This document shows positions 12,921 through 29,289 of a stretch of 64,000 bases of DNA, piece after piece (positions within the stretch are counted from its first letter, which is position 1; every line of letters begins with the position of its first letter). A program made the position numbers and the translations under genes. Under the pieces are notes generated by a model that saw nothing but the letters and a program-made list of their open reading frames with translations, was not told where the DNA came from and searched no databases. Source of the stretch: Berkelbacteria bacterium GW2011_GWE1_39_12 (GTDB lineage: Bacteria > Patescibacteriota > UBA1384 > UBA12157); NCBI GenBank assembly GCA_001029735.1, contig CP011213.1, positions 460,613 to 524,612 on the forward strand. Reading direction: 5' to 3'.

Positions 12921-13428
12921 TCGAACTGGTCGGCTGGCGGAGAAATCCGCCGGCCCAAACCTCGGATGCATTATTAAAATATAGTGCATCGGAGAGCTTG
13001 AAATCGCACTTTGACAATTTGAAGGAGGAATTTTAATTGAAATCGATTGTTTGGGCCATCTGTTTCCTTGCTATGGTTTTCCCGATTATGGTGATGAGAG
13101 GGGAAAAATATTCATGGCGTTTCTGGATGATAATTATCATTGGTAGTGTTTTTGTCGGGAATATCACAGCAAAAATATTCCAGTAAATTCAATGCACGAG
13201 GATCGCAGGAGGGAAAAAAATGGAATTCATTTGTAATTTTGTGGTAGCTATGATAATCGTTGAAATCATTGTTCGTTTGAGAAAGAAGTGGAGGTAAAGA
13301 AGAAGGGTGAAAAAATGATCAATAACCACCGGGTGGCGAAGCGCTTCCCGGTTTTTTTTAATAATAAAAATATTTGTTCTGGATACCGGATCCTGCTTGT
13401 AGCCGGTCCGGCATGACAAGTCAAATAA

Positions 13429-13512
13429 AAAAGCGCGAAACTGCATATTAGATCCCTCGACTGCGCTCGGGATGACAACCTTTAGTGTCATTCCGACCAA
13501 CGTGGAGGAATC
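13429..13512 (+). repeat. 84-bp direct repeat, copy 1
   Basis: Identical to 13918-14001; contains the CTCGACTGCGCTCGGGATGACA and GTCATTCCGACCAACGTGGAGGAATC motif family. Confidence 0.8.
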
Positions 13513-13532
13513 TGTCGTGTGACATTATAGTA

Positions 13533-13917: not shown

Positions 13918-14001
13918 AATAAAGCGCGAAACTGCATATTAGATCCCTCGACTGCGCTCGGGATGACAACCTTTAGTGTCATTCCGACCAACGTGGAGGA
14001 A
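13918..14001 (+). repeat. 84-bp direct repeat, copy 2
   Basis: 100 percent identical to copy 1. Confidence 0.8.
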
Positions 14002-14506
14002 TCCTTCATGAATGTGGCAATAATGTACAAAAAAGTGCGAAACAGTGCGCGCTCCATATTTTTTAAGCATAACAAAAAAGCGCGATCGAGATGCGGTCCA
14101 TTAATTTTAATTATAAACCGATCGTCGCGCTTTGTTGAGTAAAGACTTATGAGTTCTATCCTACCTTTACCAGCTGCCTGGTGAACGTAAGATTGGAAGC
14201 CTTTAATCCCACTCCTTTTAATAATGTGCTTGGGTAAGCTCTAGTGAAGTCTTTGAGAAGCGAACTTATCCACAATTTGTTAATGGGATTATATTAGTAT
14301 AAAACATACGTCAACGTTTGTCAAGCGTTTAACCTTATAGCGCTGTCTTAAATTAATTAATTTGTTTTACGAAAATGTATTTTAAACCTGTTAATAATGT
14401 AAATAATTGTTTTTGGTCGCTGATTGATCTTTTGCTCCGAAAATGATATAATGGAATCACTGGGTATCAACCTGTTTTAACTTTTGGTATTCAGAGGGGA
14501 AAAATA

Positions 14507-14620
14507 ACGCCCCACTTCGCTAAAGCTTCGCGGGACACACTTCGCTCAAATTACAACAGTTAATGGAGCGGCTTGCCACGCGTAGCCCGATGCGGAGCAG
14601 AGGGCGAAGTGTGGAGGGAT
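14507..14620 (+). promoter_or_regulatory. conserved leader element, copy A (about 112 nt), ending in the SD GGAGGG 8 nt before the ftsK ATG
   Basis: Three-copy element (also 18870-18972 and 29189-29289); conserved CACACTTCGC ... GCGAAGTGTG long-range inverted repeat next to the SD; internal hairpin with a G-U/A-U substitution between copies. Confidence 0.6.
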
Positions 14621-14626
14621 TTTTTT

Positions 14627-16870
14627 ATGGCCAAGAGAAAGTACAGACGAAAAGGTCAACGACTTTCAGTCTGGGAAGAAATGGATTGGAGTGTACAACC
14701 GGAGACAGCAAAATCGGTTACTTCAGTCATTTTGATTATCTTGGGCTTAATCATTTTATTAGGTATTTTTGGACTCGCCGGCGTTACTGGAAAATTTTTC
14801 TTACGTCTTTCAACTGATCTCTGGGGATTATTGGGATATTTAATTCCCTTTATTTTTCTTACCTACGGAGTTGGACTCTTAATTAAAAGCGAACGTTTTC
14901 AAATAAAGCCGATGACGGTTGTCGGCACTGTTTTATTGATGATATTTTTGCCGGCGCTTATTCACCCGGTCGGCGGAGCTATCGGCGGTGGTATTAGAAG
15001 CCTATTTGTGGCAATGGTTGGTTTCTACGCCAGCTTAATTTTGCTTTTTGGTTTAACCATTGTGGGATTGCTTGTGACGATGAATACTTCCATTGTTGAT
15101 CTTTGGCAGCGAATAAAACCGGAGAGTGGCGGGGAAGCGTCTGGTGGCGGAGTTCGTGTGAATGAAAACGGCGCTCGAGCATCGGTTTTCACCTTGCCCA
15201 ATCGCCAAGCACCTCAGCCTCATAGCAGTATGATTCAGCCTTTCCAGGGCGGGGACAAAACATGGAACTTTCCCCCGCTTGATTTATTGGAAACTGGGTC
15301 AGGTAAAGCCACCTCTGGGAACATCCCAAAGAACGTCGATATTATTCAAAAGACTCTATCTGATTTTGGCGTACCGGTGGCGATGGGTGATGTTAATGTT
15401 GGTCCGACAGTTACGCAATATACATTAAAGCCTGGGACTTCGGTTAAACTAAATCAAATTACGGCTCGCGCCAATGATCTTTCCTTAGCTCTGGCTCAGC
15501 ACCCGATTCGTATCGAAGCGCCAATTCCGGGAAAATCTGCCGTTGGTATAGAAATTCCAAACAAAACTTTTGCCACTGTTTCACTCCGCGAAGTTTTGGA
15601 AAGTGAAGAATGCAAAGCTTCAAAATCCAACCTTACTTTAGCCATTGGCCGCGATGTTGCCGGTCAAGCTGTGGCCGCCGATCTAAAACAAATGCCTCAC
15701 CTTCTGATCGCTGGTGCGACTGGTTCAGGAAAATCGGTTGGTATCAACGCCATGATTTTATCTTTGCTTTATCAGAACTCGCCAAATGACCTAAGATTGA
15801 TTTTAGTTGACCCTAAACGTGTTGAATTTACTCATTATAATGACGTACCGCATCTTCTTTGCCCGGTTGTTTTCGATGTCGATAAAACCGTTTCGGCGCT
15901 CCGCTGGGCGGTGGCGGAAATGGATCGACGTTTCAGAGTTTTGCAGGAAACCGGAAGACGCAATATTGAAGCTTATAATCAAAATCCGCCAAACGGAAAA
16001 CTACCTTACATTGTTATTTTTATCGATGAGTTGGCTGATCTTATGGCTCAAGCTGGGAATGAAGTGGAATCGGCAATTGTGCGTCTGGCCCAGATGGCCA
16101 GAGCCGTTGGTATTCACTTGGTTGTGGCAACTCAGCGTCCTTCTGTCGACGTTATCACTGGTTTGATTAAGGCTAATATTACTAACCGTATTGCTTTTGC
16201 GGTCGCCTCTCAAATTGATTCCCGTACTATTCTGGACGCTTCTGGCGCTGAAAAACTTTTGGGCAAAGGTGATATGCTCTGGTTGGGTAACGATCTCGGT
16301 AAGCCAAAACGTATCCAAGGTGTTTTAATTACAGATAAAGAAGTTGATAAAATTACTAATTTCTTAAAGAATGAAAGTGCGCCGCAATATGACGAAACAA
16401 TTTTATCCTATCATACGCCGTCGCAAGGCGGAGTGGGCGGCGGAGGCGATATGAGTTCTTCTGACGATCTTTATAATGAAGCCAAGGAAGTCGTAGTGAT
16501 GGCTGGCAAAGCATCGGCCTCGCTCTTGCAAAGACGTCTGCGGGTCGGTTATGCTCGAGCTGCCAGACTTTTAGATATGTTGGAATCAGAGGGAATAATT
16601 GGTCCGGCTGATGGCGCCAAGCCACGTGACGTGATGATAGACCCCGTCGCTTTAGAGCACGAAAGAAATCAAGCCTCAATGCCGATGAACCAAGCACCTC
16701 AGGCTCATTTTGCGCCGACGCCATCTGGATTTAGCCGTCCGACTTCACCTGAACCGCAATATACTCAAGAACCGGCATTACCTCAAGCGCCTCAATATCC
16801 TGCAGATGGTCCTGATGAATTTACAATTAATGGCGGCACTGAAAACGATGTAGATAATTTTGGAAGGTAA
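14627..16870 (+). CDS. ftsK: DNA translocase FtsK/SpoIIIE
   Basis: N-terminal TM segments, Walker A GATGSGKS, C-terminal winged-helix gamma domain; the ORF-track N-terminal extension lies inside the repeat, so ATG 14627 is preferred. Confidence 0.9.
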   Translation: MAKRKYRRKGQRLSVWEEMDWSVQPETAKSVTSVILIILGLIILLGIFGLAGVTGKFFLRLSTDLWGLLGYLIPFIFLTYGVGLLIKSERFQIKPMTVVGTVLLMIFLPALIHPVGGAIGGGIRSLFVAMVGFYASLILLFGLTIVGLLVTMNTSIVDLWQRIKPESGGEASGGGVRVNENGARASVFTLPNRQAPQPHSSMIQPFQGGDKTWNFPPLDLLETGSGKATSGNIPKNVDIIQKTLSDFGVPVAMGDVNVGPTVTQYTLKPGTSVKLNQITARANDLSLALAQHPIRIEAPIPGKSAVGIEIPNKTFATVSLREVLESEECKASKSNLTLAIGRDVAGQAVAADLKQMPHLLIAGATGSGKSVGINAMILSLLYQNSPNDLRLILVDPKRVEFTHYNDVPHLLCPVVFDVDKTVSALRWAVAEMDRRFRVLQETGRRNIEAYNQNPPNGKLPYIVIFIDELADLMAQAGNEVESAIVRLAQMARAVGIHLVVATQRPSVDVITGLIKANITNRIAFAVASQIDSRTILDASGAEKLLGKGDMLWLGNDLGKPKRIQGVLITDKEVDKITNFLKNESAPQYDETILSYHTPSQGGVGGGGDMSSSDDLYNEAKEVVVMAGKASASLLQRRLRVGYARAARLLDMLESEGIIGPADGAKPRDVMIDPVALEHERNQASMPMNQAPQAHFAPTPSGFSRPTSPEPQYTQEPALPQAPQYPADGPDEFTINGGTENDVDNFGR

Positions 16871-16871
16871 A

Positions 16872-17600
16872 ATGGATCAACGAAACGAACAACTAAAAGA
16901 ACTGTTAGAATCTGAAAAGCAAGAATTTTTAGCGGTTATGAGTCATGAACTCCGTACTCCCATGACTGGAGTCAAGGGTTACTTGTCGATGGTTTTAGAT
17001 GGCGACGCAGGTCCTATTTCTGACGACGTCAAAGAATATGTTTCAGAGGCATATGTTGCCAATGATCGGTTGATTCGCTTGGTTGATCACATGATGAAAG
17101 TTGTCGCTATCCAAGAAGGAAACTTACGATTCGATATTAAAAAAGTTGATCTAGTTCAAACGGTAGAGATGTTAACTCATGATTTTGCCGAACCAGCCAA
17201 AGAGAAGAACTTAACAATTGTTTATGAGAAGCCTGATCATCAAATTTTCGTTTCAGCTGACCCTGACAGATTAAGAGAACTTTTAATGAATTTAATCTCG
17301 AATGCGATAAAGTTTACGCAAGAAGGCTCAATTACGATTAGCCATCGCAACATCAACCACCATTTAGAGGTAGTAGATATTAAAGATACCGGCATTGGAA
17401 TTGACCGCCAACAACAATCAAGGATATTTGAAATTTTTTCAAAAGCTAATTTAAGTTTATCAGGTCAAGAAAAAGGTACCGGGCTTGGGCTTTTCTTAGC
17501 CAATAAGTTTGCTGAAGCACAAGATGGAAAGATTTGGCTAGATAGTTCCGAAGTGGGTGTTGGCAGTACTTTTTCCGCCGCTTTTGAAAAAGTGGATTAA
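16872..17600 (+). CDS. soluble histidine kinase (HisKA + HATPase_c only)
   Basis: H-box MSHELRTPMTGVKGY; N, G1 and G2 boxes; no TM or sensor domain. Confidence 0.8.
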   Translation: MDQRNEQLKELLESEKQEFLAVMSHELRTPMTGVKGYLSMVLDGDAGPISDDVKEYVSEAYVANDRLIRLVDHMMKVVAIQEGNLRFDIKKVDLVQTVEMLTHDFAEPAKEKNLTIVYEKPDHQIFVSADPDRLRELLMNLISNAIKFTQEGSITISHRNINHHLEVVDIKDTGIGIDRQQQSRIFEIFSKANLSLSGQEKGTGLGLFLANKFAEAQDGKIWLDSSEVGVGSTFSAAFEKVD

Positions 17601-17618
17601 CATGAAACTAGGAGTAAT

Positions 17619-17987
17619 ATGTCTAAAATTTTAATCGTTGAAGATGATCCGGTCCTCAGTAAAATGTACGCTAAAAAGTTTGAAAAAGATGGCTTTGATG
17701 TAACTTCGGCTTATGATGGGCAAGAAGCGGTTGATAAAATTAATGGAAATAAGTTTGACGTCGTTTTGCTTGATATAATGCTTCCAAAACTCGATGGCTT
17801 TGCTGTTTTAAAAAATATCAAAGAAAACTCTAAATTTAAAGATTTACCTGTCATTTTATCGACCAATCTTGGTGGCGGAGAGCAAGATAAGACTAAAGGT
17901 GAGCAAATGGGCGCTGTTGACTACTTAGTCAAATCGGATTTTACGCCAAGTGAAATTGTTGAAAAAGTAAAAGCGCATATAAAGTGA
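17619..17987 (+). CDS. single-domain response regulator (CheY-like receiver)
   Basis: ILIVEDD...DVVLLDIMLPKLDG...K motifs; 122 aa, no output domain. Confidence 0.85.
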   Translation: MSKILIVEDDPVLSKMYAKKFEKDGFDVTSAYDGQEAVDKINGNKFDVVLLDIMLPKLDGFAVLKNIKENSKFKDLPVILSTNLGGGEQDKTKGEQMGAVDYLVKSDFTPSEIVEKVKAHIK

Positions 17988-18020
17988 GCATCGAATAATC
18001 CCTCGGCTTAAAGGAGAACA

Positions 18021-18386
18021 ATGTCCAAGATATTGATGATTGAAGACGATATAATGTTGGCTCAGATGTATCAACGTAAATTAGAGGAGAACGGCTTATC
18101 GGTAAAGCTCGCTTATTCTGGTACGGAAGGCTTAGCGGAAGCGCAAATGGAAAAGCCTGATCTAATTTTACTCGACATCATGATGCCGAAGATGAATGGC
18201 TTTGATGTTTTAAAGCGTCTGAAAGAAAATATTATCTTGAAGGAAATTCCTGTAATTGTATTAACGGCTTTAACTCAAGACAGCGACAGAGAAGAAAGTA
18301 AAAAGTTAGGAGCTGTCGATTACTTAATTAAATCTGATTTTACGCCTGGTCAAATAATCGATAAAATTCAGAAATATCTGAAATAA
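18021..18386 (+). CDS. single-domain response regulator (receiver only)
   Basis: Paralogue of the previous gene, 121 aa. Confidence 0.85.
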   Translation: MSKILMIEDDIMLAQMYQRKLEENGLSVKLAYSGTEGLAEAQMEKPDLILLDIMMPKMNGFDVLKRLKENIILKEIPVIVLTALTQDSDREESKKLGAVDYLIKSDFTPGQIIDKIQKYLK

Positions 18387-18494
18387 AATTTAGTTGAAAT
18401 TCCATAAAATTCATCAAGCGAAATCTTTATAAAGCATTTTGCTTTGCAAGCTACGCTTATAGACTTTCGACTAAAGCGACCAAAGGGAGCGGTT

Positions 18495-18869
18495 ATGGCT
18501 AAAATTTTGATTGTCGAAGACGATGTAACACTTTCCAAAATGTACCAGAAGAAGTTAATGCTGGCCGGGTATGCTGTCGAAGCATCTTTTAATGGTAAAG
18601 ATGCAGTTGTAAAAACCGCTGAAGAAATGCCAGATTTGGTCTTACTTGATATAATGTTACCAGGAATTGATGGCTTCGAAGTGGTGAAACAATTGAAAGC
18701 CAATAAGAAAACAGCGAGTATCCCGATTATTATTTTGACTAACCTTGGGACATCAGAAGTTTTTATTGATGAAGCTAAAATGCTAGGTGTACAGCAATAC
18801 CTAGTGAAGTATAAGACTTCTGGGACAGAGTTAGTTGAGAAAATAAAGGAAGAATTAGAAATTAATTAA
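18495..18869 (+). CDS. single-domain response regulator (receiver only)
   Basis: MAKILIVEDD start with AAGGGAG RBS; the upstream part of the ORF-track ORF is probably untranslated. Confidence 0.8.
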   Translation: MAKILIVEDDVTLSKMYQKKLMLAGYAVEASFNGKDAVVKTAEEMPDLVLLDIMLPGIDGFEVVKQLKANKKTASIPIIILTNLGTSEVFIDEAKMLGVQQYLVKYKTSGTELVEKIKEELEIN

Positions 18870-18972
18870 ACGCCCCACTTCGCTAAAGCTTTGCGGGACA
18901 CACTTCGCTCCAAATAGAGTGAGGCTTGTCACGCATAGCCCGATGCGGAGCTGAGGGCGAAGTGTGGAGGGG
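18870..18972 (+). promoter_or_regulatory. conserved leader element, copy B
   Basis: About 90 percent identical to copy A; immediately 5' of the GAF-PAS kinase. Confidence 0.6.
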
Positions 18973-21109
18973 CAAAATAGAAGAGAAAAAAGCAGTCCAG
19001 ACTGAAATACAAACAGAAGTTCAGTCTCTTTATCAGATCTCGCAAATCGCGGCCAAAGCTAAAAATCTTGATGCTTTGTGGCAGCCGCTTTTTGATGAAA
19101 TTTCAAAAATCATGCAGGTTGATGCCGGTACTTTAATGATACTGGAAGATGACGAGTTGGTAAGAAAAACGGCTAAAGGACTGGGCGATAATATCATGAA
19201 AGAGCCGCCAATTCCAAGATCAAAAGGTGGCGTTTCTTGGAAAGCCGTCACGACTCGTGATGAAGTGGTAATAAATGACCTTTCGGCTTCAGACATCGCT
19301 TCACAGGCGCTTAAGGAAGGTGAGTTTCATTCATTGATGACTGTACCGATGATGGTCCGAGAACAAGTTATCGGTGTAATCAGTATTTTTGCCCGTAAGG
19401 GTCGAAACTTTTCCGATTCTGACGTTTCCATGTTTAGAGCCATTGCTAACCAAGCCGCTTTAGCGATTATCAGTTTAACCTCGGCCGAATTTTTAAAAGA
19501 AAATAAGAAGAGACTAGCCGAACTTTCGGCTTTAAATCAAATTTCCAGATCAGTGGCGACCTTATTTGATTTTGAAGAAACTTTGTTTTCGATTATAGGT
19601 TTAATAACTAAACAACTAAGAGGCGATCAGGGTGTGATTGTTCTATTTGATCACAAGGAAAAGTTACTTAAAGCTGCTCTGCCTGCCTTTAATTTGACCC
19701 CTTCTCAGGTTAGGGATTTTCGTACTCGAACAGATGAAGGTGCGACCGGCCAGGCATTTTGCAAAGGTATCCCGATTAATATCGAGACGATAGATCAAGA
19801 AACCAAAGAAACTTTAGAACGAGCAAAAATTACTGGTGTTAAAAGTATGTTGGTCGCCCCGCTGAAAGTTAAGTCTCAAACCTTGGGCGTTATTCATGTC
19901 TTTTCGTCGAAAGAAAAAAACTTTACTGCTGATGACCTCAAACTATTTAATATTCTAACTTCGTCAGCGGCGGTGGTGGTCAATTCGTCATATATTTATC
20001 AAAAAATCGAAGAGGAAAAAAAGAAAGACGACGCTTTACTTTCTTCGATAGGTGAAGGAGTTTTGGCGGTAAACGATAACCGAGACATTATCTTGCTAAA
20101 CGCTGCCGGAGAAAGAATTACGGGCTTTTTACAAGAAGAATTATTAGGAAAATCTGTGGAAAGTACCCTGCAAATTCTTAACGACAAAAAAGTGATGATT
20201 TCTCGGGAGGAATCTCCTATAGCCAAAGTTTTAACCGACGGCAAGCCAATTTTCATGAACAACGTCTTTTTAAAAAGACATGACGGCGTATTATTTCCTG
20301 CCCGCTTTAACGTCGCCGCCACTCATGATGCCATGGATAAAATTATTGGCGCCATTGTGGTCTTTAATGATATAACGCATGATTTGGAAGTCGAACGGAT
20401 GAAGCAAGAACTTATTTCGATAGCTACTCATGAATTAAGGACGCCGATTACTGGTATTAAAGGTTATCTGGAAATGATTTTGGACGGGGATACGGGTGGC
20501 GTCAATAAGGAAACAAAAGAAGTGCTAGATGAAATGTCGGCCATCAATGGACGTATTGCAGACTTGGTTGATGATTTGTTAAATATTGGCCGGATTGAAC
20601 AGGGAAGAATTGAGATCAAACCAAAGCCAACTAACCTAATTGTTCTGATCTATAACTGTATCAAAGAATTATCAGTTCAGGCTAAAGAGAAAAATTTAGA
20701 GTTGATTTTTAATCCGCCAACCGATATTCCTCAAATTTTAGCTGATCCAGACAGAACAAAACAAATATTAGTGAACCTTATCGGTAATGCTATTAAATAC
20801 ACACCAGAAGGCAAGAAGAGCAAGGTTGAGGACTGGAATGAAATTGAAATTACCTTGGATAAAAAGGGTAAAGATATCGTTTGCCACGTTAAAGATCATG
20901 GTTTAGGTATTTCCAAAGAAGGGCAAAAGCAGCTTTTCCAGAAGTTCTCACGCGTTAAAACTGATCAAACGCGAATGATCACAGGTACTGGTTTGGGGCT
21001 ATGGATTACTAAACAGATTGTAGAGATGATGAGCGGAAAGATTTGGGTTGAATCTGTTGAGGGTAAAGGTTCAACATTCTCGTTTACCTTGCCGCAAAAT
21101 AGCGTCTGA
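18926..21109 (+). CDS. cytoplasmic sensor histidine kinase (GAF-GAF-PAS-HisKA-HATPase_c)
   Basis: Two GAF-like regions, one PAS region, H-box ATHELRTPITGIKGY, and ATPase boxes. The start is uncertain: TTG 18926 or GTG 18962 inside the repeat, because the first ATG (19112) would truncate GAF-1. Confidence 0.8.
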   Translation: MSRIARCGAEGEVWRGKIEEKKAVQTEIQTEVQSLYQISQIAAKAKNLDALWQPLFDEISKIMQVDAGTLMILEDDELVRKTAKGLGDNIMKEPPIPRSKGGVSWKAVTTRDEVVINDLSASDIASQALKEGEFHSLMTVPMMVREQVIGVISIFARKGRNFSDSDVSMFRAIANQAALAIISLTSAEFLKENKKRLAELSALNQISRSVATLFDFEETLFSIIGLITKQLRGDQGVIVLFDHKEKLLKAALPAFNLTPSQVRDFRTRTDEGATGQAFCKGIPINIETIDQETKETLERAKITGVKSMLVAPLKVKSQTLGVIHVFSSKEKNFTADDLKLFNILTSSAAVVVNSSYIYQKIEEEKKKDDALLSSIGEGVLAVNDNRDIILLNAAGERITGFLQEELLGKSVESTLQILNDKKVMISREESPIAKVLTDGKPIFMNNVFLKRHDGVLFPARFNVAATHDAMDKIIGAIVVFNDITHDLEVERMKQELISIATHELRTPITGIKGYLEMILDGDTGGVNKETKEVLDEMSAINGRIADLVDDLLNIGRIEQGRIEIKPKPTNLIVLIYNCIKELSVQAKEKNLELIFNPPTDIPQILADPDRTKQILVNLIGNAIKYTPEGKKSKVEDWNEIEITLDKKGKDIVCHVKDHGLGISKEGQKQLFQKFSRVKTDQTRMITGTGLGLWITKQIVEMMSGKIWVESVEGKGSTFSFTLPQNSV

Positions 21110-21165
21110 GTTGCAAGAGTTATAGTGATTACATATAATAAAGATGAATAAAAAGAGCATCAATA

Positions 21166-21240
21166 GGTAAGCTTCGCTTACCGCGGAATTTTTCCCTGGA
21201 AGGAAAAATATAGTTAAGCTGTCGATTACCGCGGAATTTT
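21166..21240 (+). promoter_or_regulatory. two tandem TTACCGCGGAATTTT boxes, each followed by a GGA(A/G)AAAATAT RBS-like segment
   Basis: Variant of the CCAAGC/TTGTCGCGGAATTT element; sits directly upstream of the 21253 ATG. Confidence 0.5.
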
Positions 21241-21252
21241 CAAGGAGAAAAT

Positions 21253-21648
21253 ATGGCAAAAGCCAAATTGCTTTTAGTTGAAGACGACGTAACTTTATCT
21301 AAAATGTATGAAAAGAAATTTAAGACCGAAGGGTATGATGTTGAAGTAGCCTATGATGGTTTAGATGGTTTAGATAAAGCAGTTAAGGGGAAACCGGATT
21401 TAGTGGTTTTGGACATCATGCTGCCAAAAATGGATGGTTTATCAGTATTTAAAAAAATGCGTAGTACTCCGGACACTTTTAAAACTCCAGTATTACTACT
21501 GACCAACTTTGATCAAGAAGATACTGTTTTTGAATGTTTCAAACTCGGGGCAGTTGATTATTTGTTAAAATCTTCAGTCACTCCAAAGCAGGTAGTAGAA
21601 AAAGTCGGTAACTTGCTTAAAGGTATCGAAGGCCCGATAACAGAGTAA
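21253..21648 (+). CDS. single-domain response regulator (receiver only)
   Basis: Fourth receiver paralogue, 131 aa. Confidence 0.85.
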   Translation: MAKAKLLLVEDDVTLSKMYEKKFKTEGYDVEVAYDGLDGLDKAVKGKPDLVVLDIMLPKMDGLSVFKKMRSTPDTFKTPVLLLTNFDQEDTVFECFKLGAVDYLLKSSVTPKQVVEKVGNLLKGIEGPITE

Positions 21649-21675: not shown

Positions 21676-22176
21676 TTGAGAAAGAAGGGTTTTACACTCA
21701 TCGAGCTACTTATTGTGGTAGCAATTATTGCCATCTTGGCGATTATTGTTGTGGTGGCAATTAACCCGGCAAAAATGTTATCAAAGGCTCGAGATTCACA
21801 GAGATTTTCCGATACTACCAGTATTGCGACAGCTGTAAATCTTTATCTAGCCGACAACAATGATTTTACTGGCCTCGTGGGTCCGTATCTTTCAACTGTT
21901 GGTTCAACAGATAACGCACGTAAAAAGAATGATGCAACTGGCTGGATCCCAATTAACTTCACCGCTATTTCATCTGGAGCCCCTTTGGCTGCATTACCTC
22001 TTGATCCGACCAATACTGCTACGTATCACTATACTTTTGGTGTGAGTACGATCAATAAGACTTATGAGATCGATTGTGCTTTCGAACATTCAGACAACAC
22101 GCCAAAACATTCAGCAGACGGTGGTAATAATTCAGATGCTTATGAAGTTGGCACAGATTTGACTATTTTACCTTAA
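21676..22176 (+). CDS. type IV pilin (prepilin with N-terminal cleavage/methylation domain)
   Basis: MRKKGFTLIELLIVVAIIAILA class III signal. Confidence 0.8.
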   Translation: MRKKGFTLIELLIVVAIIAILAIIVVVAINPAKMLSKARDSQRFSDTTSIATAVNLYLADNNDFTGLVGPYLSTVGSTDNARKKNDATGWIPINFTAISSGAPLAALPLDPTNTATYHYTFGVSTINKTYEIDCAFEHSDNTPKHSADGGNNSDAYEVGTDLTILP

Positions 22177-22193: not shown

Positions 22194-22790
22194 TTGCACA
22201 ATGTTACGCCGATAATCTTTTACTTTCTGTATTTCGGGACGAGTATACTTTTTGTGGTTTTGCTTTTCTGTTTTCTCGTCAGCAAAAAATTTAAGCAATT
22301 TTTAAAGCCGGCAGTTTATATCTCGATTGCGATTTTCCTTGTTTCGTTAGCCAATCAGATTTTGAATTTGTATTTTGCAGTAAAAGGGTCATCGTTTGGA
22401 CAGTATTTATTAGAGGGAATGAACGGCTTCTTTTGGCAGAAGACTATTGGATTATCCAAATCTTATTTTCTTTCATTTCTTTTTGCCATTTCAATCTTTT
22501 TCATTGCCCAGTTAGTTTTTGAAAAGCAAAAGAGGCAGGTGCTGGACGAATATGCTCCGACAATCGCTTTTGTTACTGCATTATTAGTCGGTTCAGTTCA
22601 GATTATTCCACTCTTCGTCGCCGCTTTTATTTTTGCCATTGTATACCAGTTAATATATTTGGTGGTAAAAAAAGTTAGCGATAGTCGAGTGTCAATTGTC
22701 CCGTTTTTGATTTTAGCGGCGCTGATTATCCAGGTATTACAGATTTTTCCGTTTTACGATAAGTTTTTGGGGTGGTTGCACATTATCTAG
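22194..22790 (+). CDS. polytopic membrane protein, possibly prepilin-peptidase-like
   Basis: 198 aa with 5-6 hydrophobic helices inside the pilus operon; no clear A24 catalytic motif. Confidence 0.3.
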   Translation: MHNVTPIIFYFLYFGTSILFVVLLFCFLVSKKFKQFLKPAVYISIAIFLVSLANQILNLYFAVKGSSFGQYLLEGMNGFFWQKTIGLSKSYFLSFLFAISIFFIAQLVFEKQKRQVLDEYAPTIAFVTALLVGSVQIIPLFVAAFIFAIVYQLIYLVVKKVSDSRVSIVPFLILAALIIQVLQIFPFYDKFLGWLHII

Positions 22791-22814: not shown

Positions 22815-24536
22815 ATGCTCCATATCCCATTGGGGGAACTAAAAAAGACACTTGTTGGCTCTGGTTTTATTGATGAAAGTCAATTTAACCAAGCTTTTGA
22901 AGAAGCTAGCAAGACCGATCGTGATATCACTAATATCATTGTCGAACATGGTGATATTTCTGAAGAATATTTGGCCGAGATTTTGGCCGATTATTTTGAT
23001 GTAAAATTTGTTTCCTTGGGAAAAATTAAAATTCCAGAAGAGGTGGTTCAGATTATTCCCGAGAACCTAGCCAAGAGTAAAAAAGTTATTCCATTTGAAG
23101 CGCCCGATGATCAAACCTTGAAAGTAGCCATGGAGGACCCGGGCGACTTAGATGCGATCAATTTTTTAGAAAAATCCACGGGAAGAAAAATTCTGCCTTT
23201 CATTACGACCGCTGGCAGTTTTCGTGAGGCGCTAGGTGTTTATAAAAAATCAATTGCTAAAGATTTTACCAAGATTATCGAAGAAAATGTCGCTAGGAGC
23301 AAAGCAGAAGGAAAAGATGCGGAACAGATGGCGAAAGATTTACCGGTGATCAATATTTTAAACACCATTATGGAATATGCTATTTCTCAGCGGGCTTCTG
23401 ATGTGCATATGGAAATGTTACCGAAAGAATTTTTGGTGAGATTTAGAATCGACGGCATCTTACGCGATATTGTAAGTCTTTCTCCTGTAGTGCATCCGGC
23501 CATAGTAGCCAGAGTCAAAATTCTAGCTGATATCAAAATAGATGAACACCGTTTACCTCAAGATGGACGATTCCGTTATGAAAGTGAAAACAGCGCCGAC
23601 GATTCGCATAGCACAGCTGTCCGTGTTTCGGTGATTCCGGCATTTTACGGCGAGAAGGTTGTTATGCGTTTGCTCGAAGAGTCTGAAAGATTTTTAACTT
23701 TAGAAGAATTGGGTCTTTCAAGCCGCAATTTCACTTTAGTTAATAAAGCCATTTTGCAGCCCCACGGCATGATCCTCTCGACCGGGCCAACTGGTTCCGG
23801 TAAAACTACCTCCTTGTATACAATTTTGCATATATTAAATCGACCTGAAGTTAATATTTCAACGATTGAAGATCCAATTGAATACGATGTAAAGCGGGTC
23901 AATCAAATTCAGGTAAATCCTAAAATTAATTTAACCTTCGCCGATGGACTCAGAAGTCTGCTTCGCCAAGATCCAGATATTTTAATGGTGGGGGAAATTC
24001 GTGATAAAGAAACGGCCGACATGGCCATCCATTCGGCTTTGACCGGTCACTTGGTACTTTCCACACTTCACACTAACGATGCGCCTGGAGCCATCCCTAG
24101 GATGATTGATATGGGAGTGGAGCCGTTCCTGCTTTCTTCGACTTTGAATTTAGTCGTCGCTCAAAGATTGGTGAGAAAAATTTGTACTAATTGTGTCACG
24201 ACAGTAAAGATGACAGATGATCAAAAAAAACAATTAGAACAAACCATTAAAGCTTTAGGCGGCAAGATCAAATTACCAGGTAAAATTTATAAAGGTAAAG
24301 GTTGCCAAGAATGCGGCGGATCTGGATTTAAGGGTAGAATCGGTATTTTTGAAGTCATGGCCATCACGCCGGAAATGCAAGAAATTATGGCCACTAAAGT
24401 TTCTGAATTGTCTGAGGAAAAAATTAGAGTGCAAGCTTTGGCTGACGGAATGGTGACAATGATGGAAGACGGTTTTATGAAAGTGGAATCGGGGATAACG
24501 ACTTTAGAAGAAGTGCTCAGAGTGACGAGCGAATAG
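22815..24536 (+). CDS. pilB: type IV pilus assembly ATPase PilB (GspE family)
   Basis: GSPII_E N-terminal domain, Walker A GPTGSGKTT, tetracysteine CxxC..CxxC. Confidence 0.9.
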   Translation: MLHIPLGELKKTLVGSGFIDESQFNQAFEEASKTDRDITNIIVEHGDISEEYLAEILADYFDVKFVSLGKIKIPEEVVQIIPENLAKSKKVIPFEAPDDQTLKVAMEDPGDLDAINFLEKSTGRKILPFITTAGSFREALGVYKKSIAKDFTKIIEENVARSKAEGKDAEQMAKDLPVINILNTIMEYAISQRASDVHMEMLPKEFLVRFRIDGILRDIVSLSPVVHPAIVARVKILADIKIDEHRLPQDGRFRYESENSADDSHSTAVRVSVIPAFYGEKVVMRLLEESERFLTLEELGLSSRNFTLVNKAILQPHGMILSTGPTGSGKTTSLYTILHILNRPEVNISTIEDPIEYDVKRVNQIQVNPKINLTFADGLRSLLRQDPDILMVGEIRDKETADMAIHSALTGHLVLSTLHTNDAPGAIPRMIDMGVEPFLLSSTLNLVVAQRLVRKICTNCVTTVKMTDDQKKQLEQTIKALGGKIKLPGKIYKGKGCQECGGSGFKGRIGIFEVMAITPEMQEIMATKVSELSEEKIRVQALADGMVTMMEDGFMKVESGITTLEEVLRVTSE

Positions 24537-24546: not shown

Positions 24547-25767
24547 TTGGCCTTTAAAACTGGAGGTTTTTTGCTTTTCGAATACACAGCAGCCGGACAA
24601 GACGGCACAATCAGGAAAAGTCAGATGGAAGCGACCGATAAAGACGCGGTTATTTCATATTTAAAAAGAAAAGATTTTTTAGTTATCCGTGTGGCAGAAA
24701 AAGCTGAAGATATTGGTCAGGTCTTTGCCGGCAAAGTGACGGCGTTAGAAAAGATTGATTTAACTGGTAACTTGTCGATTATGTTAAAAGCCGGTGTTGG
24801 GATGCCTGAAGCCTTGGAAATTATCTCCAAAGACTCGAAAAATCCCTATTTTGAAAAAGTCTGCTCATCTTTAAAATCCAATTTGGAAAATGGCCGGCCA
24901 CTATCAGTTGGTTTAAAGCATTATCCCAAAGATTTTAGTAACGTATTTATTAGTCTGATTAAAGCCGGCGAAGCTTCAGGAAAATTGGAACAGGTTTTAG
25001 CTCAATTAAGCCAACAGTTAAAAAAAGAACATAGCTTGGTGACAAAAATTCGAAGCGCCTTTGCCTATCCTGTAGTGCTGGTTTGCGGCTTAATCGCAGT
25101 GGTGATTCTTTTAATGACTTTTGTCTTACCAAAGCTTGTCACATTGTTTTCTGATTCAAATTTAAAATTGCCATTAGGTACTCGTATTGTTTTTGATATA
25201 TCTCAAGCGCTGTCGGCTAGACCGATTTTTACGCTTATCGGAGTAATTTTATTAACAATAATAATTCTGTTTTTAGCGCGTAACCAAAAAATCAAAGCCT
25301 TTTCTTTGCGAACGGTTTATCATTTACCGGTTGCATCACAGCTAATTGCTCAAATGGAATTGGCTCGATTTTCCAGAACTTTATCGAGCCTGATGCAAAG
25401 TGGTGTGCCAATTGTCCAGGCATTGGAGATTACTGCGGAAGCACTTAGTCTGCCTCAGTATAAAAAAATGGTACTAGACGCCAAAGAAGACATCGCCAAA
25501 GGCGTATCTTTAACCAATGCTTTTAAAAAGAACGAAAAAATTTTCCCACAAATGCTGGTTTCCGTCATGCAGGTTGGAGAAAAAACGGGAAATTTAGATA
25601 AGCTTTTATTAAGTATCGGTGATTATTTTGAAGAACAAGTTGATAACACTTTAAGTGTTTTAACAAGTTTGGTCGAGCCAGTGTTACTGGTTGTTGTCGG
25701 AGTAGCGATTGGTGGGATGGCGATTTCTATAATCTTGCCAATCTATCAGCTAATCGGAAGTTTTTAA
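24547..25767 (+). CDS. pilC: type IV pilus platform protein PilC (GspF family)
   Basis: Two GspF repeats, 3 TM segments, 406 aa. Confidence 0.85.
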   Translation: MAFKTGGFLLFEYTAAGQDGTIRKSQMEATDKDAVISYLKRKDFLVIRVAEKAEDIGQVFAGKVTALEKIDLTGNLSIMLKAGVGMPEALEIISKDSKNPYFEKVCSSLKSNLENGRPLSVGLKHYPKDFSNVFISLIKAGEASGKLEQVLAQLSQQLKKEHSLVTKIRSAFAYPVVLVCGLIAVVILLMTFVLPKLVTLFSDSNLKLPLGTRIVFDISQALSARPIFTLIGVILLTIIILFLARNQKIKAFSLRTVYHLPVASQLIAQMELARFSRTLSSLMQSGVPIVQALEITAEALSLPQYKKMVLDAKEDIAKGVSLTNAFKKNEKIFPQMLVSVMQVGEKTGNLDKLLLSIGDYFEEQVDNTLSVLTSLVEPVLLVVVGVAIGGMAISIILPIYQLIGSF

Positions 25768-25769: not shown

Positions 25770-26294
25770 ATGGCGAAAAATATGGCCTTTCGGGCGCGGA
25801 ATTTCAATCGAAATATAGCCCTTGGGACGCAGAATTTCCGAAGAAATATTAAATCATCGAAGGGTTTTACCCTAATCGAGATTTTGGTAGTGATGGCGAT
25901 TTTAGTTGTAATGGCCGGTTTTTCTGTTGCGAGCTTAACCTCCTTCGGCCGAAGTAGTAATATTGATGGCGATTACATGACGCTAGAATCGTCTTTAAGA
26001 CTGGCCGAAAGTAATTCACAAGCCAACTTAGGTGACAGCCAATGGGGAATTCACCTAGAAAGTAATCGGTTCACGCTTTTTAGCGGATCGACTTATAATG
26101 CTTCTGATATTGCCAATAATAAAGTAAGAACATTTTCTAACGGCGTTGTATTAAGTTGGAGCCTCGCTGACGGTGGTCAAGACATTTTGTTCAACAAAGG
26201 CAAAACCTCCACTATTAATACTGGTACGCTTACTCTTTCGGGTAGTGGCAATAGCAAGCAACTTACATTGAATGGTGAGGGCACAATTGAATAA
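25770..26294 (+). CDS. pseudopilin with unusually long (about 39 aa) leader before G-FTLIEILVV
   Basis: Prepilin motif KGFTLIEILVVMAIL. Confidence 0.65.
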   Translation: MAKNMAFRARNFNRNIALGTQNFRRNIKSSKGFTLIEILVVMAILVVMAGFSVASLTSFGRSSNIDGDYMTLESSLRLAESNSQANLGDSQWGIHLESNRFTLFSGSTYNASDIANNKVRTFSNGVVLSWSLADGGQDILFNKGKTSTINTGTLTLSGSGNSKQLTLNGEGTIE

Positions 26295-28254
26295 AAAATG
26301 TAATTTATTTTTTCACTTGAAAAGCCCTGGACAACTCTTGGTCGAGGTAGTTTTATCAGTTGGCCTTATTGCACTGCTAGTGGCGGCTGTGGTGCCACTG
26401 GTTTTATCAAGCACCAAAGCGATGAGAGACCAAGAAAAAGTTTCTCAGGCTTCGCTCTTGGGTAAGGAGACACTGGACACTGTGCGAGCAATCAAAGAGG
26501 AAGATTGGAACAGTATCTATTTACCTTTAGGCACGTCTAGTAAAGGTTCTGTAAATTTATATCACACTGAGTTAATTTCCGATAAATGGCAGTTGGTTAC
26601 TGGAGAAGAATCAGTTACTCTTGATGGCAACAATTTTCAGCGCAGTTTAATCATTGAAAATGTTTCCAGAACTGGTTCAAATGGCAGCGGTGAAATTGAG
26701 CCTAATTATAATAGTTTGCGCGACGATCCTTCGACTCAAAAGATCACAGTGACTGTTGGCGGTTTTGGCGGCTCCCCAATTGTTTTGGTAGAATTTGTCA
26801 GCCGCTGGAGTAATCAACTTTTTTCTGACACTTCTTGGTCTACAGGGCAAAACCCAACCCAAACTAACGTTGATTTTGCCTCTACGCCAGGTGCCTTGCT
26901 TCTTACTTCAAGAGGTGGTGGGAATGATACCTATGGAAATAAGTTTTTAATGACGGCTACTGCCACGATTGGCGCATTAAATAACACAACCAAACAGGCC
27001 GATATGCGTTTTACGGCACAGCAAGACGGCACCGTTAATAATGTCAGTGTTTATTTAACCACGGCATCTAGTTTGGCAGGAACTAAATATAATTATGGAC
27101 TTCAAGCGGATAATAGCGGCTTGCCAAGCGGTACATATCTAAGCTCTGCATCATCATTTTTCAATAAAACTGGGTGGAAAACAATAACAATTCCTTCAGT
27201 TAGTGTTACTGCTGGAACTGTTTATCATCTTGTGGTGCAGTACGCTTCCGGCAGAGCACCAACCGCAGCTAATTATATTGATATTCGAGATTCTTCGCCG
27301 CAAAATAATATAATACCCAAAATTCAAAAAACTGATTTAAATCAAAATACACTATTTTATAGCGGCACTGTTTGGGGCATTCAAAATAGGGAGCCGATTT
27401 ACCGTCTTGGTTTTATCGATGGCTCATTCGAAGGTAATCCTTATGATACCTTCGAAGCCCGTTCTATTTTCGGCGCTAACTGGGAAGGTGAAACAATGAC
27501 GATTGCCGGTGATAAAGTGGCCAATAGTTTGAGTTTAATGGTTTCCAAAAGCACTGCAGTTAATCCAGCCGATGATCTGCACTTTACCATAGAGGATTTA
27601 ACCACCAGCACTAAATTAGTTGATAATTTAGTCTTTACTAATGGTGCGGCCTTAACAACCGGTTACTCCATGAAGACTTATACTTTTTCTTCACCTATTA
27701 CTTTGACAGACACGCATCAATATCGATTGTACTTTTCGTCGCCGTTCGCAAATAGAATCAATTTTTATCGGATTATTAATGTTTCTAACCCTGGTACTGC
27801 TGGTTTTAAAGATATAAATTGGGATGGAACTAAATCGTTAGTTTCTCGTTCAACTAAATCAGGAGCAAACTGGACTGAAACAGACTACATTGATTTATCG
27901 GGTTATTATTTTAGTCTAAGTGCGGCGTCAACCTATAGTTTAAGCGGTTATCTTGTTTCTCAGACCTTTGATGCAACTAAGAAGGCTGGCTTCAACCGTA
28001 TTTCTTGGACCAATCTTACTTTACCAGCAAATACGAGTGTCAAGCTTCAATTGGCTGCCAACAATGATCAATCCACCTGGAACTTTAGTGGTCCTGACGG
28101 CACGGCTGGGACTTATTACACTATTAATTCTGGTGAAAACATCAGTTCTGTGCTTTCAAATAATCGTTATATTAGATACAAAGCATATTTAGCGACAACT
28201 AATGATAAAGTTACGCCGGTATTGGCCGATGTGACATTAGGTTATTCTCTTTGA
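26272..28254 (+). CDS. giant pilin-like protein (660 aa), probable minor pilin or tip adhesin
   Basis: N-terminal G-QLLVEVVLSVGLIAL prepilin-like segment followed by a large Ser/Thr/Asn-rich beta-type domain. Confidence 0.5.
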   Translation: MVRAQLNKKCNLFFHLKSPGQLLVEVVLSVGLIALLVAAVVPLVLSSTKAMRDQEKVSQASLLGKETLDTVRAIKEEDWNSIYLPLGTSSKGSVNLYHTELISDKWQLVTGEESVTLDGNNFQRSLIIENVSRTGSNGSGEIEPNYNSLRDDPSTQKITVTVGGFGGSPIVLVEFVSRWSNQLFSDTSWSTGQNPTQTNVDFASTPGALLLTSRGGGNDTYGNKFLMTATATIGALNNTTKQADMRFTAQQDGTVNNVSVYLTTASSLAGTKYNYGLQADNSGLPSGTYLSSASSFFNKTGWKTITIPSVSVTAGTVYHLVVQYASGRAPTAANYIDIRDSSPQNNIIPKIQKTDLNQNTLFYSGTVWGIQNREPIYRLGFIDGSFEGNPYDTFEARSIFGANWEGETMTIAGDKVANSLSLMVSKSTAVNPADDLHFTIEDLTTSTKLVDNLVFTNGAALTTGYSMKTYTFSSPITLTDTHQYRLYFSSPFANRINFYRIINVSNPGTAGFKDINWDGTKSLVSRSTKSGANWTETDYIDLSGYYFSLSAASTYSLSGYLVSQTFDATKKAGFNRISWTNLTLPANTSVKLQLAANNDQSTWNFSGPDGTAGTYYTINSGENISSVLSNNRYIRYKAYLATTNDKVTPVLADVTLGYSL

Positions 28255-28283
28255 TTTGCCGCAAATTATTCCTGGAAAAAAAC

Positions 28284-28784
28284 ATGAAAAACAAATTTTT
28301 TACAAAAAGACGGGGCGTAACACTAATGGAGCTGATTATTTACATCGGTGTGATGTCAATTGTGATTGTGGCCATTACGGATTTGGCTGGTCGCCTGGTT
28401 TTTGCGCAAAAGAAAAATAACGCTTCTACTGAAATAAATGAGACATCAAACCTTATTTCAGGTAAACTAAACAGCGATATTGCCAATGCAACTGCAGTGA
28501 ATGGCATATTTCCTTCCAACACTTTAATTTTAACTGTCGACGGTCATCAACTTCAGTATGATTTATCCGACAATAATTTAAGTCTTAAAACAGATAGCGG
28601 TGAAGCGGTTAAATTAAATTCGAGTCGCATCAAAATTCAGCCAGTCGTTCCTAGCACAATGATTTTTAATAAAGCAGAGAATGGTTCGGCAAATTCCGTT
28701 AGCTATAAAATGAATTTTACTTTGTTAACCGGTTCTGGCATAGGAAATACTGTGCAGACGACGATTTTGATGAGGGCAAAATGA
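28284..28784 (+). CDS. pseudopilin
   Basis: MKNKFFTKRRGVTLMELIIYIGVMSIVIVAI; internal ATG preferred over the ORF-track start. Confidence 0.65.
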   Translation: MKNKFFTKRRGVTLMELIIYIGVMSIVIVAITDLAGRLVFAQKKNNASTEINETSNLISGKLNSDIANATAVNGIFPSNTLILTVDGHQLQYDLSDNNLSLKTDSGEAVKLNSSRIKIQPVVPSTMIFNKAENGSANSVSYKMNFTLLTGSGIGNTVQTTILMRAK

Positions 28785-29188: not shown

Positions 29189-29289
29189 GTCCTACTCCGC
29201 TAAAGCTACGCAGGACACACTTCGCTCATAGTTAGAGTGAGGCTTGCCAGCGTAGCCCGAAGCGAAGACGAGGGCGAAGTGTGGAGGGG
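29189..29289 (+). promoter_or_regulatory. conserved leader element, copy C, ending GGAGGGG 3 nt before the pilM GTG
   Basis: The 3' 40 nt and central GGACACACTTCGCTC are identical to copies A and B; the 5' arm has diverged. Confidence 0.6.

Follow-up and report, generated by a model that had tools for sequence, protein, structure and literature searches.

Soluble histidine kinases and stand-alone receivers beside a Berkelbacteria type IV pilus locus, and a receiver kept before the pilin gene across Patescibacteria

Introduction

What do two soluble histidine kinases and four stand-alone receivers regulate when their genes lie in a row directly in front of a type IV pilus locus and none of their products carries an output domain? 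The question is raised by a 64,000-nucleotide stretch of Berkelbacteria bacterium GW2011_GWE1_39_12 (contig CP011213.1, positions 460,613 to 524,612; the whole of this stretch is called the window below), whose source organism belongs to Candidatus Berkelbacteria in the Candidate Phyla Radiation (CPR)/Patescibacteria. The same locus is also present in GenBank assembly GCA_003509005.1 (contig DODL01000011.1) and in groundwater metagenome assemblies, and the receiver next to the pilin gene is, like its close homologues, labelled Candidatus Berkelbacteria by NCBI. Host attachment, movement and DNA uptake in CPR/Patescibacteria are believed to rely centrally on type IV pili (PMC6744442, PMC9894109, PMC11623550). 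In the searchable literature we found no paper on the regulation of CPR/Patescibacteria pili or naming a receiver in their loci, and the pilus loci of Saccharibacteria TM7x as described contain none (PMC11623550); the association of receiver and pilin genes across the Patescibacteria examined here appears to be undescribed.

A preliminary description of this DNA had proposed a signalling cluster linked to the pilus, and the evidence assembled below strengthens that idea. We consider the chances roughly even that the genes form a two-component cluster dedicated to the type IV pilus, in which the second kinase and the fourth receiver (HK2 and RR4) are the core, the first kinase and the other receivers (HK1 and RR1-3) are an added branch, and the receiver acts on the pilus by protein contact. 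Gene content, intact catalytic residues, fold and conserved synteny are the direct evidence, and from these we infer the phosphorylation partners and the target. Two-component control of pili through stand-alone receivers is already known, so the principle is not a new one; a receiver kept before the pilin gene across many classes is nevertheless a concrete candidate for a pilus regulator.

Six signalling genes in front of the pilin gene

On the plus strand, six signalling genes follow one another from 16872 to 21648 in the order HK1-RR1-RR2-RR3-HK2-RR4, and the pilin gene comes next.

16872-17600, plus strand: HK1, 242 aa, minimal soluble histidine kinase (Pfam HisKA 5e-15 and HATPase_c 2e-22 only)
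17619-17987, plus strand: RR1, 122 aa, stand-alone receiver (Pfam Response_reg 1.5e-25)
18021-18386, plus strand: RR2, 121 aa, stand-alone receiver (Pfam Response_reg 8.6e-26)
18495-18869, plus strand: RR3, 124 aa, stand-alone receiver (Pfam Response_reg 1.9e-20) with a divergent beta5-alpha5 loop, YLVKYKTSG
about 18962-21109, plus strand: HK2, soluble GAF-GAF-PAS-HisKA-HATPase_c kinase (Pfam), 715 aa by gene calls
21253-21648, plus strand: RR4, 131 aa, stand-alone receiver adjoining the pilin gene (Pfam Response_reg 3e-24)
21676-22176, plus strand: major pilin candidate, prepilin leader MRKKG|FTLIEL (Pfam N_methyl 1e-8, TIGR02532)

The Pfam search bears out the six genes and their domains as they had been read from the sequence: a HisKA-HATPase kinase, three receivers, a GAF-GAF-PAS kinase and a fourth receiver. 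In both kinases the H, N, G1, F and G2 boxes are intact (SHELRTP, NLISNAIKFT, DTGIGI and GTGLGL in HK1; THELRTP, NLIGNAIKYT, DHGLGI and GTGLGL in HK2), the ExxT phosphatase motif (HELRT) is present in each, and the two are 37% identical across the catalytic core. The phospho-acceptor of HK1 is His25, within SHELRTP, and because it stands already at residue 25 there is no room for a sensor domain. In the four receivers Response_reg is the sole Pfam match (E 1e-20 to 1e-26), and the acidic pair, acceptor Asp, Thr and Lys (E8, D9, D10, D52, T82, K105) are invariant, the acceptor being D52 in RR1 and D54 in RR4. An AlphaFold2 model of RR4 (pLDDT 90.6) has the canonical receiver fold of five strands and five helices, and its Foldseek matches to solved receivers lie at an rmsd of 1.3-1.9 A. 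By the classical marks of such systems, namely the domains and boxes of the kinases and the residues and fold of the receivers, HK1, HK2 and RR1-4 are two-component proteins. The names given to the receivers in public records ("PhoP", "OmpR family") are generic pipeline labels, and among the best 25 NCBIfam matches per protein no kinase or receiver match reached its family cut-off.

That the cluster lacks transmembrane segments and DNA-binding outputs had also been stated, and Kyte-Doolittle hydropathy, Pfam and NCBIfam agree. In none of the six proteins does a 19-residue window reach a Kyte-Doolittle value of 1.6, so that they are predicted to lack membrane segments, and Pfam and NCBIfam give no DNA-binding or other output domain in any of them. 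The pilin gene directly follows RR4 as had been said, with a gap of 27 nt between the RR4 stop codon and a TTG start at 21676 that is preceded by AAGGAGG. The word "phosphorelay", which the preliminary description also used, does not apply in its strict sense: no Hpt or Spo0B-like domain was found in the six proteins or elsewhere in the 64-kb window, so a strict multi-step phosphorelay is not supported.

A receiver before the pilin gene across Patescibacteria

How general is this pairing of a receiver with a pilin gene? A genome collection was scanned with the PilB assembly ATPase of the window rather than with a receiver, because a receiver query would favour receiver-bearing loci. The scan gave 80 loci (numbered with the prefix L), drawn from 80 species-level genomes, and their PilB proteins share 44-68% identity with that of the window; by record titles they include Azam-, Kerfeld-, Wolfe-, Jorgensen-, Colwell-, Harrison- and Liptonbacteria, Paceibacteria and Microgenomates, and they were annotated by phmmer, for which the window proteins served as queries. 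A locus was taken as evaluable if it had 600 nt or more 5' of the first pilin gene, or of PilB where no pilin was recognised (n = 55). A same-strand stand-alone receiver lies directly 5' of the pilin or PilB gene in 49 of these 55, and two of the six exceptions (L010 and L061) have a receiver 1.6-2.2 kb further upstream. The pilin-adjacent receivers share a mean pairwise identity of 49% (minimum 27%), and the phosphorylation residues are kept in all of those aligned. The receiver encoded beside the pilin gene is, in our reading, probably a dedicated pilus switch.

An alignment of 52 pilin-adjacent receivers with RR1-4 (56 sequences) brings out features that are frequent in the family. The Pro that usually follows the conserved Lys is replaced, by Ala in 45 and by Ser in nine of the 56; the top PDB homologues of the receivers have Lys-Pro, and among the homologues of RR4 the Lys is followed by Ser, Ala or Thr in 120 of 120 and never by Pro. 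The window receivers read KS at this place in RR1, RR2 and RR4 and KY in RR3. The S-N-L-G-Q positions after strand 4 are kept in 49-55 of the 56, and in helix 4 D91 is kept in 51 and G95 in 45; the corresponding region of the window proteins reads STNLGGGEQD..KG in RR1, TALTQDSD in RR2, TNLGTSE in RR3 and TNFDQED in RR4. Against a profile of 51 pilin-adjacent receivers RR1 scores 137, RR2 135, RR3 117 and RR4 114 bits, and the best solved receiver structure scores 98.7 bits against the profile of all 52. These scores place the window receivers, by a modest margin, in the pilus-operon receiver group.

Kinase genes are found within 10 kb upstream in only about 10 of the 80 loci. Where HisKA-HATPase kinases do stand 5' of the receiver-pilin pair, in about ten other lineages, their sensors are of differing kinds (7TM, HAMP, Cache, PAS, GAF), which suggests that the link from transmitter to receiver to pilus was kept while inputs were swapped. 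The receiver is the constant part, and its input is exchangeable or encoded elsewhere.

A bolder extension, which we advance tentatively and regard as improbable in its full form, is that this output-less receiver family is an ancestral dedicated type IV pilus switch across much of Patescibacteria that binds PilB directly, and that Berkelbacteria expanded the single receiver to two kinases and three or four receivers. The marks of such a family would be Lys-Ala/Ser in place of Lys-Pro, the S-N-L-G-Q switch loop and the position of the gene at the head of the pilus cluster. The receiver, which usually has no neighbouring kinase, might then take its phosphoryl group from a kinase encoded far away or from acetyl phosphate. 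If true, host attachment and DNA uptake would be tied to the metabolic state of the cell.

The survey also turned up an arrangement of ribosomal RNA genes. Of the 52 loci whose receiver adjoins the pilin gene, 28 have a 16S rRNA gene 5' of that receiver and in the same orientation, mostly at a distance of 100-450 nt (among them L019, L024, L030, L034, L039, L041, L048, L057, L060, L066, L074, L076, L078 and L080); in L066, for example, the 16S gene occupies 6641-8119 and the receiver 8303-8707. A 23S rRNA gene follows about 10-13 kb downstream on the same strand in L048, L054, L064 and L078 (16S 5251-6671, receiver 8058-8453, 23S from 18390), as well as in L036, where no receiver is visible. 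With 16S upstream and 23S downstream, the whole pilus operon in those loci lies between unlinked 16S and 23S genes. The arrangement does not hold in the window, and no mention of it was found in the searchable literature. In L046, a 455-aa open reading frame (ORF; 3248-4615) between the 16S gene and the pilus operon joins a reverse-transcriptase domain (RVT_1) in frame to the pilin-adjacent receiver; a true domain fusion was rejected here, as the RVT_1 ORF runs into the receiver frame, and a retroelement insertion is the probable origin.

The pilus locus and its gene order in Berkelbacteria relatives

Around the signalling genes, the window holds the following features.

14627-16870, plus strand: ftsK (Pfam FtsK_alpha, FtsK_SpoIIIE, FtsK_gamma)
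22194-22790, plus strand: multi-pass membrane protein of 198 aa and no known family (no Pfam or NCBIfam match)
22815-24536, plus strand: PilB assembly ATPase (Pfam MshEN and T2SSE)
24547-25767, plus strand: PilC platform protein (Pfam T2SSF)
25770-29188, plus strand: four pilin-like or pilus-associated proteins with hydrophobic N-terminal segments
29292-30677, plus strand: PilM-type protein (Pfam PilM_2), with a membrane segment by hydropathy
30679-31272, plus strand: membrane protein after PilM (hydropathy)

A single nucleotide separates the ftsK stop codon from the HK1 start codon. The block of four pilin-like proteins is kept 3' of PilC in many of the 80 PilB loci, and the orthologue of the PilM-type protein in the Berkelbacteria locus L089 matches both PilM_2 and PilN of Pfam. 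Beyond the pilus genes, at 31514-33912, come a RodZ-like HTH_25 protein, RecA and RecX. The last two also accompany a pilus locus described in Saccharibacteria TM7x (PMC11623550), and their position here is in keeping with a connection of pili to DNA uptake or recombination. The 198-aa membrane protein has homologues between pilin and PilB in the Berkelbacteria loci L007, L089 and L090, and in L091 it is retained beside the pilin gene. It lacks the GxGD motif of prepilin peptidases, and Pfam searches relaxed to an E value of 10 returned no match common to its five homologues.

Four Berkelbacteria relatives allow the history of the cluster to be followed. L007 reads FtsK-HK1-RR1-RR3-HK2-RR4-pilin-membrane protein-PilB. 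L089 (FtsK-x-HK1-RR1-RR3-HK2-two SLH proteins-RR4-pilin-membrane protein-PilB) and L090 (RR1-RR3-HK2-eight unrelated genes-RR4-x-pilin-membrane protein-PilB) have intervening genes between HK2 and RR4, and in L090 RR4 is one gene away from the pilin. L091 (9001-11328) reads FtsK-HK2-RR4-pilin-membrane protein-RodZ-like-RecA; the PilB to PilM block is gone from the site, moved or lost, and kinase, receiver and pilin stay. The order of HK2 and then RR4 and pilin is thus common to all four, HK2 lying directly 5' of RR4 in L007 and L091. HK2 orthologues in L089, L090 and L091 match at E 1e-257 or better; HK1 orthologues occur in L007 and L089, and FtsK stands 5' of the cluster in L007, L089 and L091. 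On this gene order HK2, RR4, pilin and the membrane protein form a stable core, and HK1 with RR1 and RR3 is an accessory module.

Could the adjacency be inherited gene order without functional meaning, the cluster regulating something other than the pilus? The link between cluster and pili is one of genomic position, and two to eight unrelated genes (SLH proteins, a toxin-antitoxin pair) have come to lie between HK2 and RR4 in L089 and L090. RR4, however, stayed with the pilin even where other genes were inserted, and receiver and pilin remain together in 49 of the 55 evaluable loci despite receiver identities down to 27% and PilB identities down to 44%, so that we hold this explanation to be very unlikely. 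Gene order in related genomes had been named in the preliminary description as a check on its idea, and the order is kept in the four relatives as the receiver-first order is in 49 of the 55 evaluable Patescibacteria loci.

Old paralogues with a common docking helix and different output faces

How did four receivers arise in one cluster, and do they have the same partners? RR1-4 are 41-48% identical to one another. Their genes have almost no DNA-level repeat, the only one being a weak 27-nt repeat between RR1 and RR2. In a neighbour-joining tree RR1-4 and the receivers of L007 form a clade apart from other Patescibacteria receivers, and RR1, RR3 and RR4 each pair with their own L007 orthologue (64, 52 and 76% identity). 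Orthologues of RR1 and RR3 are found in L007, L089 and L090 and those of RR4 in L007, L089, L090 and L091, in relatives whose PilB is just 68% identical to that of the window; no orthologue of RR2 was found in the four relatives, which have RR1-, RR3- and RR4-type genes. RR4 itself has more than 100 orthologues at 61-88% identity, and those with a named source are from Berkelbacteria or the Patescibacteria group. From the clade, the orthologue pairing and the level of identity, the expansion is lineage-specific but old, and the "recent duplication" suggested earlier has to be given up. The C-terminal motif that had prompted this suggestion, GAVDYL-KS-TP, is indeed present in RR1, RR2 and RR4; it is missing from RR3, which carries GVQQYLVKYKTSG in its place and whose loop KYKTS is kept in the orthologues of L007, L089 and L090.

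In solved complexes such as HK853-RR468 helix 1 of the receiver is the main kinase-docking surface. Its partner-choice positions read L-S/A-Y-K-F/L in RR1-4 and their orthologues, and the simplest reading of so nearly identical a helix is that the receivers would be poorly insulated from each other. The two kinases differ consistently, over five Berkelbacteria genomes, at positions H+6, H+9 and H+14 and along helix 2 of their DHp domains. Helix 4 and the loop between strand 5 and helix 5 are the usual output face of a receiver. This face differs among RR1, RR3 and RR4 and is nearly invariant inside each orthologue group: GGGxxDxxKGxxMGA in the RR1 group, E(V/I)FIxEAKxLGV..YL-KYKTS in the RR3 group, and VFECFKLGAVDYL-K(S/A/T)-VTP in the RR4 group, whose alpha4 is invariant (VFECFKLGA) and distinct from those of RR1 and RR3. 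A shared docking helix together with differing faces would fit several distinct protein targets fed from one shared phosphoryl pool, and the Berkelbacteria cluster offers a natural case in which one receiver was multiplied with the same kinase-docking helix and different output faces.

These features bear equally on the possibility that the receivers act inside the signalling network itself, RR1-3 serving as phosphate sinks or as allosteric modulators of kinases in the manner of DivK or PilH, with an output that may be cell division or DNA handling. With alpha1 nearly identical in all four, the receivers probably compete for the same kinases; the phosphatase motif is retained in HK1 and HK2; HK1, being sensor-less, needs a protein partner for its regulation; PleD and DivK are among the closer solved relatives; and HK1 starts 1 nt past the ftsK stop codon, with FtsK also upstream in three of the relatives. 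The tight spacing of ftsK and HK1 is not kept, however, being 378 nt in L007 and interrupted by an extra gene in L089; outside Berkelbacteria the receiver stays by the pilin without ftsK and usually without a kinase nearby; and an alpha4 face strongly conserved in each orthologue group is expected of distinct targets, not of passive sinks. We consider a role confined to the network unlikely.

A proposed explanation and what weighs against it

How, then, might a cluster dedicated to the pilus work? Its core unit would be the cytoplasmic kinase HK2 and the output-less receiver RR4. The GAF-GAF-PAS part of HK2 would sense an intracellular ligand or state, each kinase would autophosphorylate on the His of HELRTP, and the phosphoryl group would pass from there to the conserved Asp of a receiver, HK2 phosphorylating RR4. 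Old duplications within Berkelbacteria would have added the upstream module of sensor-less HK1 with RR1, RR3 and RR2, the last in this genome only, and because the docking helix alpha1 is nearly the same throughout, both kinases may reach all four receivers. The phosphorylated receivers would act by protein-protein contact through the alpha4-beta5-alpha5 face; the likeliest target of RR4 would be a cytoplasmic pilus component, either the PilB ATPase or the PilM/PilC platform, through which it may tune pilus assembly. RR4 and the major pilin gene appear to be transcribed from one promoter, as is supported by a promoter-like site between HK2 and RR4 and by the mere 27 nt between RR4 and pilin.

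Several observations weigh against this explanation. The tie between the receiver and the pilus proteins is known from genomic position, not from experiment or complex prediction, and in model bacteria the regulators whose genes adjoin the pilin gene (PilS-PilR) work at the level of transcription rather than on the motor. Comparison of specificity residues (DHp helices 1 and 2 against receiver helix 1, in five Berkelbacteria genomes) gave no pairing of kinases with receivers. Among the receiver-bearing loci, 24 have 5 kb or more of sequence upstream, and 18 of these show no kinase nearby, so the kinase is not a fixed part of the module. RR1 and RR2 are nearer than RR4 to the Patescibacteria-wide profile, and alpha4 of RR4 deviates from the family consensus at D91/G95, so that position points to RR4 as the pilus receiver and sequence to RR1. 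The 64-kb window contains no retraction ATPase PilT.

Comparison with known systems

The nearest functional parallel had been sought in PilG and PilH. In the Pil-Chp systems of Pseudomonas, Xanthomonas and Acinetobacter these output-less CheY-like receivers control type IV pili by protein contacts, several receivers are served by one kinase, and PilH is possibly a sink (PMC11656802, PMC10519157). RR1-4 resemble them as single-domain CheY-like receivers (121-131 aa, Response_reg only). In Pil-Chp, however, the MCP PilJ and the CheW-type PilI act together with a CheA-type kinase, ChpA, whereas the kinases here are of the HisKA type with GAF/PAS domains or no sensor, and the receivers are encoded with the pilin gene rather than with chemosensory genes. 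No CheA, CheW or MCP domain was found within the 64-kb window, and no PilG or PilH model is among the NCBIfam matches listed for the cluster proteins. RR1-4 cannot be counted in the PilG/PilH (Chp) family, the kinases being of the HisKA and not the CheA type; by analogy, PilG/PilH-like control at the protein level is plausible.

With PilS-PilR the cluster shares a kinase-regulator pair near the pilin gene that is dedicated to the pilus. PilS is membrane-bound and PilR is an NtrC-type activator of sigma-54 with receiver, AAA+ and HTH domains, whereas the kinases here are soluble and the receivers have neither an AAA+ (Sigma54_activat) nor an HTH domain. The closest solved pair is HK853-RR468 of Thermotoga maritima, in which a HisKA kinase likewise works with a stand-alone receiver; RR468 and RR4 share 38-39% identity (rmsd 1.3 A), and RR468 is among the top matches to the family profile. 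It differs from the window receivers in having Lys-Pro, and its system consists of one kinase, the membrane-anchored HK853, with one receiver. To our knowledge RR468 has no pilus link.

Receivers that bind the pilus motor are known from elsewhere. In Synechocystis, the cyanobacterial PATAN receivers and the Tax1 system (PixG/PixH) bind PilB1 and alter pilus activity (10.1101/2021.06.11.447907, PMC11181946), and in Xanthomonas the output-less receiver DrdR binds PilB and PilT (PMC13507683). Like these, the receivers of the cluster have no enzymatic or DNA-binding output, binding of the motor being a property of the former; unlike them, they are single receivers of 121-131 aa, whereas in the known proteins a PATAN domain or another (pseudo)receiver is added, and the kinase of Tax1 is of the CheA type. 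The Caulobacter DivJ/PleC-DivK/PleD network also combines several HisKA kinases with single-domain or output-poor receivers. Receiver 1 of PleD is the best PDB sequence match to RR4. Polar pili are under the control of this network, in which PleC responds to pilin (PMC7196804). DivK exerts its effect on other kinases allosterically, and the output of PleD is a GGDEF domain.

Transcription units, leader elements and control of expression

If the receivers do not touch the pilus machinery, might they control its expression instead? The best promoter-like sites on the plus strand, by consensus match, are at 14424-14452 (10/12 matches), before the repeat element that precedes ftsK, and at 21111-21139 (TTGCAA-17-TATAAT), just after the HK2 stop codon. 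The two sites suggest two units, ftsK-HK1-RR1-RR2-RR3-HK2 and RR4-pilin-onward. The features that concern expression are these.

14506-14625, plus strand: repeat element copy 1, ftsK leader (nhmmer 1.9e-32; fold -43 kcal/mol, z -2.15)
18869-18978, plus strand: repeat element copy 2, overlapping the HK2 start region (fold -48.2 kcal/mol, z -4.6)
21111-21252, plus strand: HK2-RR4 spacer, with the promoter-like site and a leader with two hairpin and CGCGGAATTTT motifs (consensus matches, predicted folds)
29186-29295, plus strand: repeat element copy 3, before pilM (fold -41 kcal/mol, z -2.15)

In the leader motif of the spacer a short hairpin (CCAAGC..GCTTG) is followed by CGCGGAATTTT and this by a small hairpin, in which the ribosome-binding site lies. 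It is found at window positions 5875, 21182, 21230, 32283 and 40643 and in a looser form at 39900, 40687 and 51117, that is, twice before RR4, once before recA and also before other genes; CGCGGAAWTTT occurs in five exact copies against 0.28 expected. The arms of the small hairpin vary yet stay complementary (ATTTTC/GAAAAT, ATTTTATC/GATAAAAT, AATTTAA/TTAAATT, ATTTTCTCC/GGAGAAAAT), and the motif may be a shared site of translational control.

Control of expression would mean that phosphorylated RR4 (or RR1-3) alters transcription or translation of the pilin operon indirectly, as one half of a split OmpR- or PilR-type regulator whose partner is a separately encoded DNA-binding protein, RNA polymerase, a sigma factor or the structured leaders. 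RR1-4 are closest in sequence and fold to receiver domains of the OmpR/PhoB family (RpaA, VicR, PhoP, BfmR); the receiver gene occupies the usual place of a pilin regulator beside the pilin; the leader of RR4 and pilin has the repeated hairpin motifs, as have recA and other genes; and a single-domain receiver that works through a transcription factor is known in VemR with HrpG (PMC9923393). Yet the six proteins lack a DNA-binding domain, the 64-kb window has no stand-alone winged-helix output protein, the hairpin motifs also precede unrelated genes, and in many lineages a 16S rRNA gene lies 100-450 nt before the receiver-pilus operon and leaves no room for a divergent regulator. Expression control is therefore, to our mind, possible and rather doubtful.

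A second leader element had drawn attention because the kinase and pilM leaders share it. This element of about 110 nt is real, and a third copy lies at ftsK: the three copies, in the same orientation and 78-94% identical, stand directly before ftsK, HK2 and pilM, and each ends in GGAGGG(G), which serves as ribosome-binding site (GGAGGG, that of ftsK, in copy 1). It is an imperfect palindrome, in which 5' CCCCACTTCGC pairs with 3' GCGAAGTG..GGGG, and the three copies have predicted folds of -41 to -48 kcal/mol (z -2.2 to -4.6). "Conserved", the word applied to it earlier, is the wrong one. With nhmmer the element was found only in contigs of the same genome and not in L007, L089-L091 or the 80 PilB loci; the relatives have just GGAGGGG and then ATG at the HK2 site; and RNAalifold of the three copies gave 35 pairs with zero compensatory change. 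At gathering scores the only Rfam families that pass in the 64-kb window are tRNA and a group I intron, so none covers the element, and a metagenome scan with its invariant 19-mer gave seven matches, all rejected as unrelated chance matches. The element could have spread recently as a repeat and lie in leaders by chance, or it could be a young regulatory leader by which the three operons are tied together.

The second copy also affects the start of HK2. Where relatives have GGAGGGG-N-ATG, the window reads GGAGGGGCAAAATAGAAGAG at 18953-18985 and contains no ATG; since ATA replaces the ATG of the relatives, HK2 starts either at GTG 18962, inside the element, as in the public gene call, or at a non-canonical ATA at 18977.

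Other features of the window

Besides the 110-nt element, the genome has several kinds of short palindromic repeat. Intergenic repeats with a hairpin core (CTCGACTnCGCTCGAGATGACA) lie at 6108-6139, 6468-6499, 13427-13519 and 13918-14010, one 93-nt pair among them being 96% identical. A 103-nt repeat at 48587-48699 and 51074-51252 is 92% identical, and its second copy leads into three and a half tandem units of 33 nt (TATAAGCGAAGCTTGCAACTCGCCGTCGCTCGT). At 45724-46368 a tRNA gene is split by a group I intron, the 5' half beginning at 45724 (TCCCCGGTAGCTCAGCGGTAGAGCA...) and the 3' half ending in ...GGTCGTCCGTTCGAATCGGACCCGGGGAGCCA at about 46368; Rfam Intron_gpI matches at 46096-46318 (55.5 bits), the intron holds a 107-aa ORF (45806-46129), and ARAGORN makes no call for the split tRNA there. 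Towards the end of the window, at 62016-62795, lies a heliorhodopsin gene (Pfam PF18761, E 2e-103).

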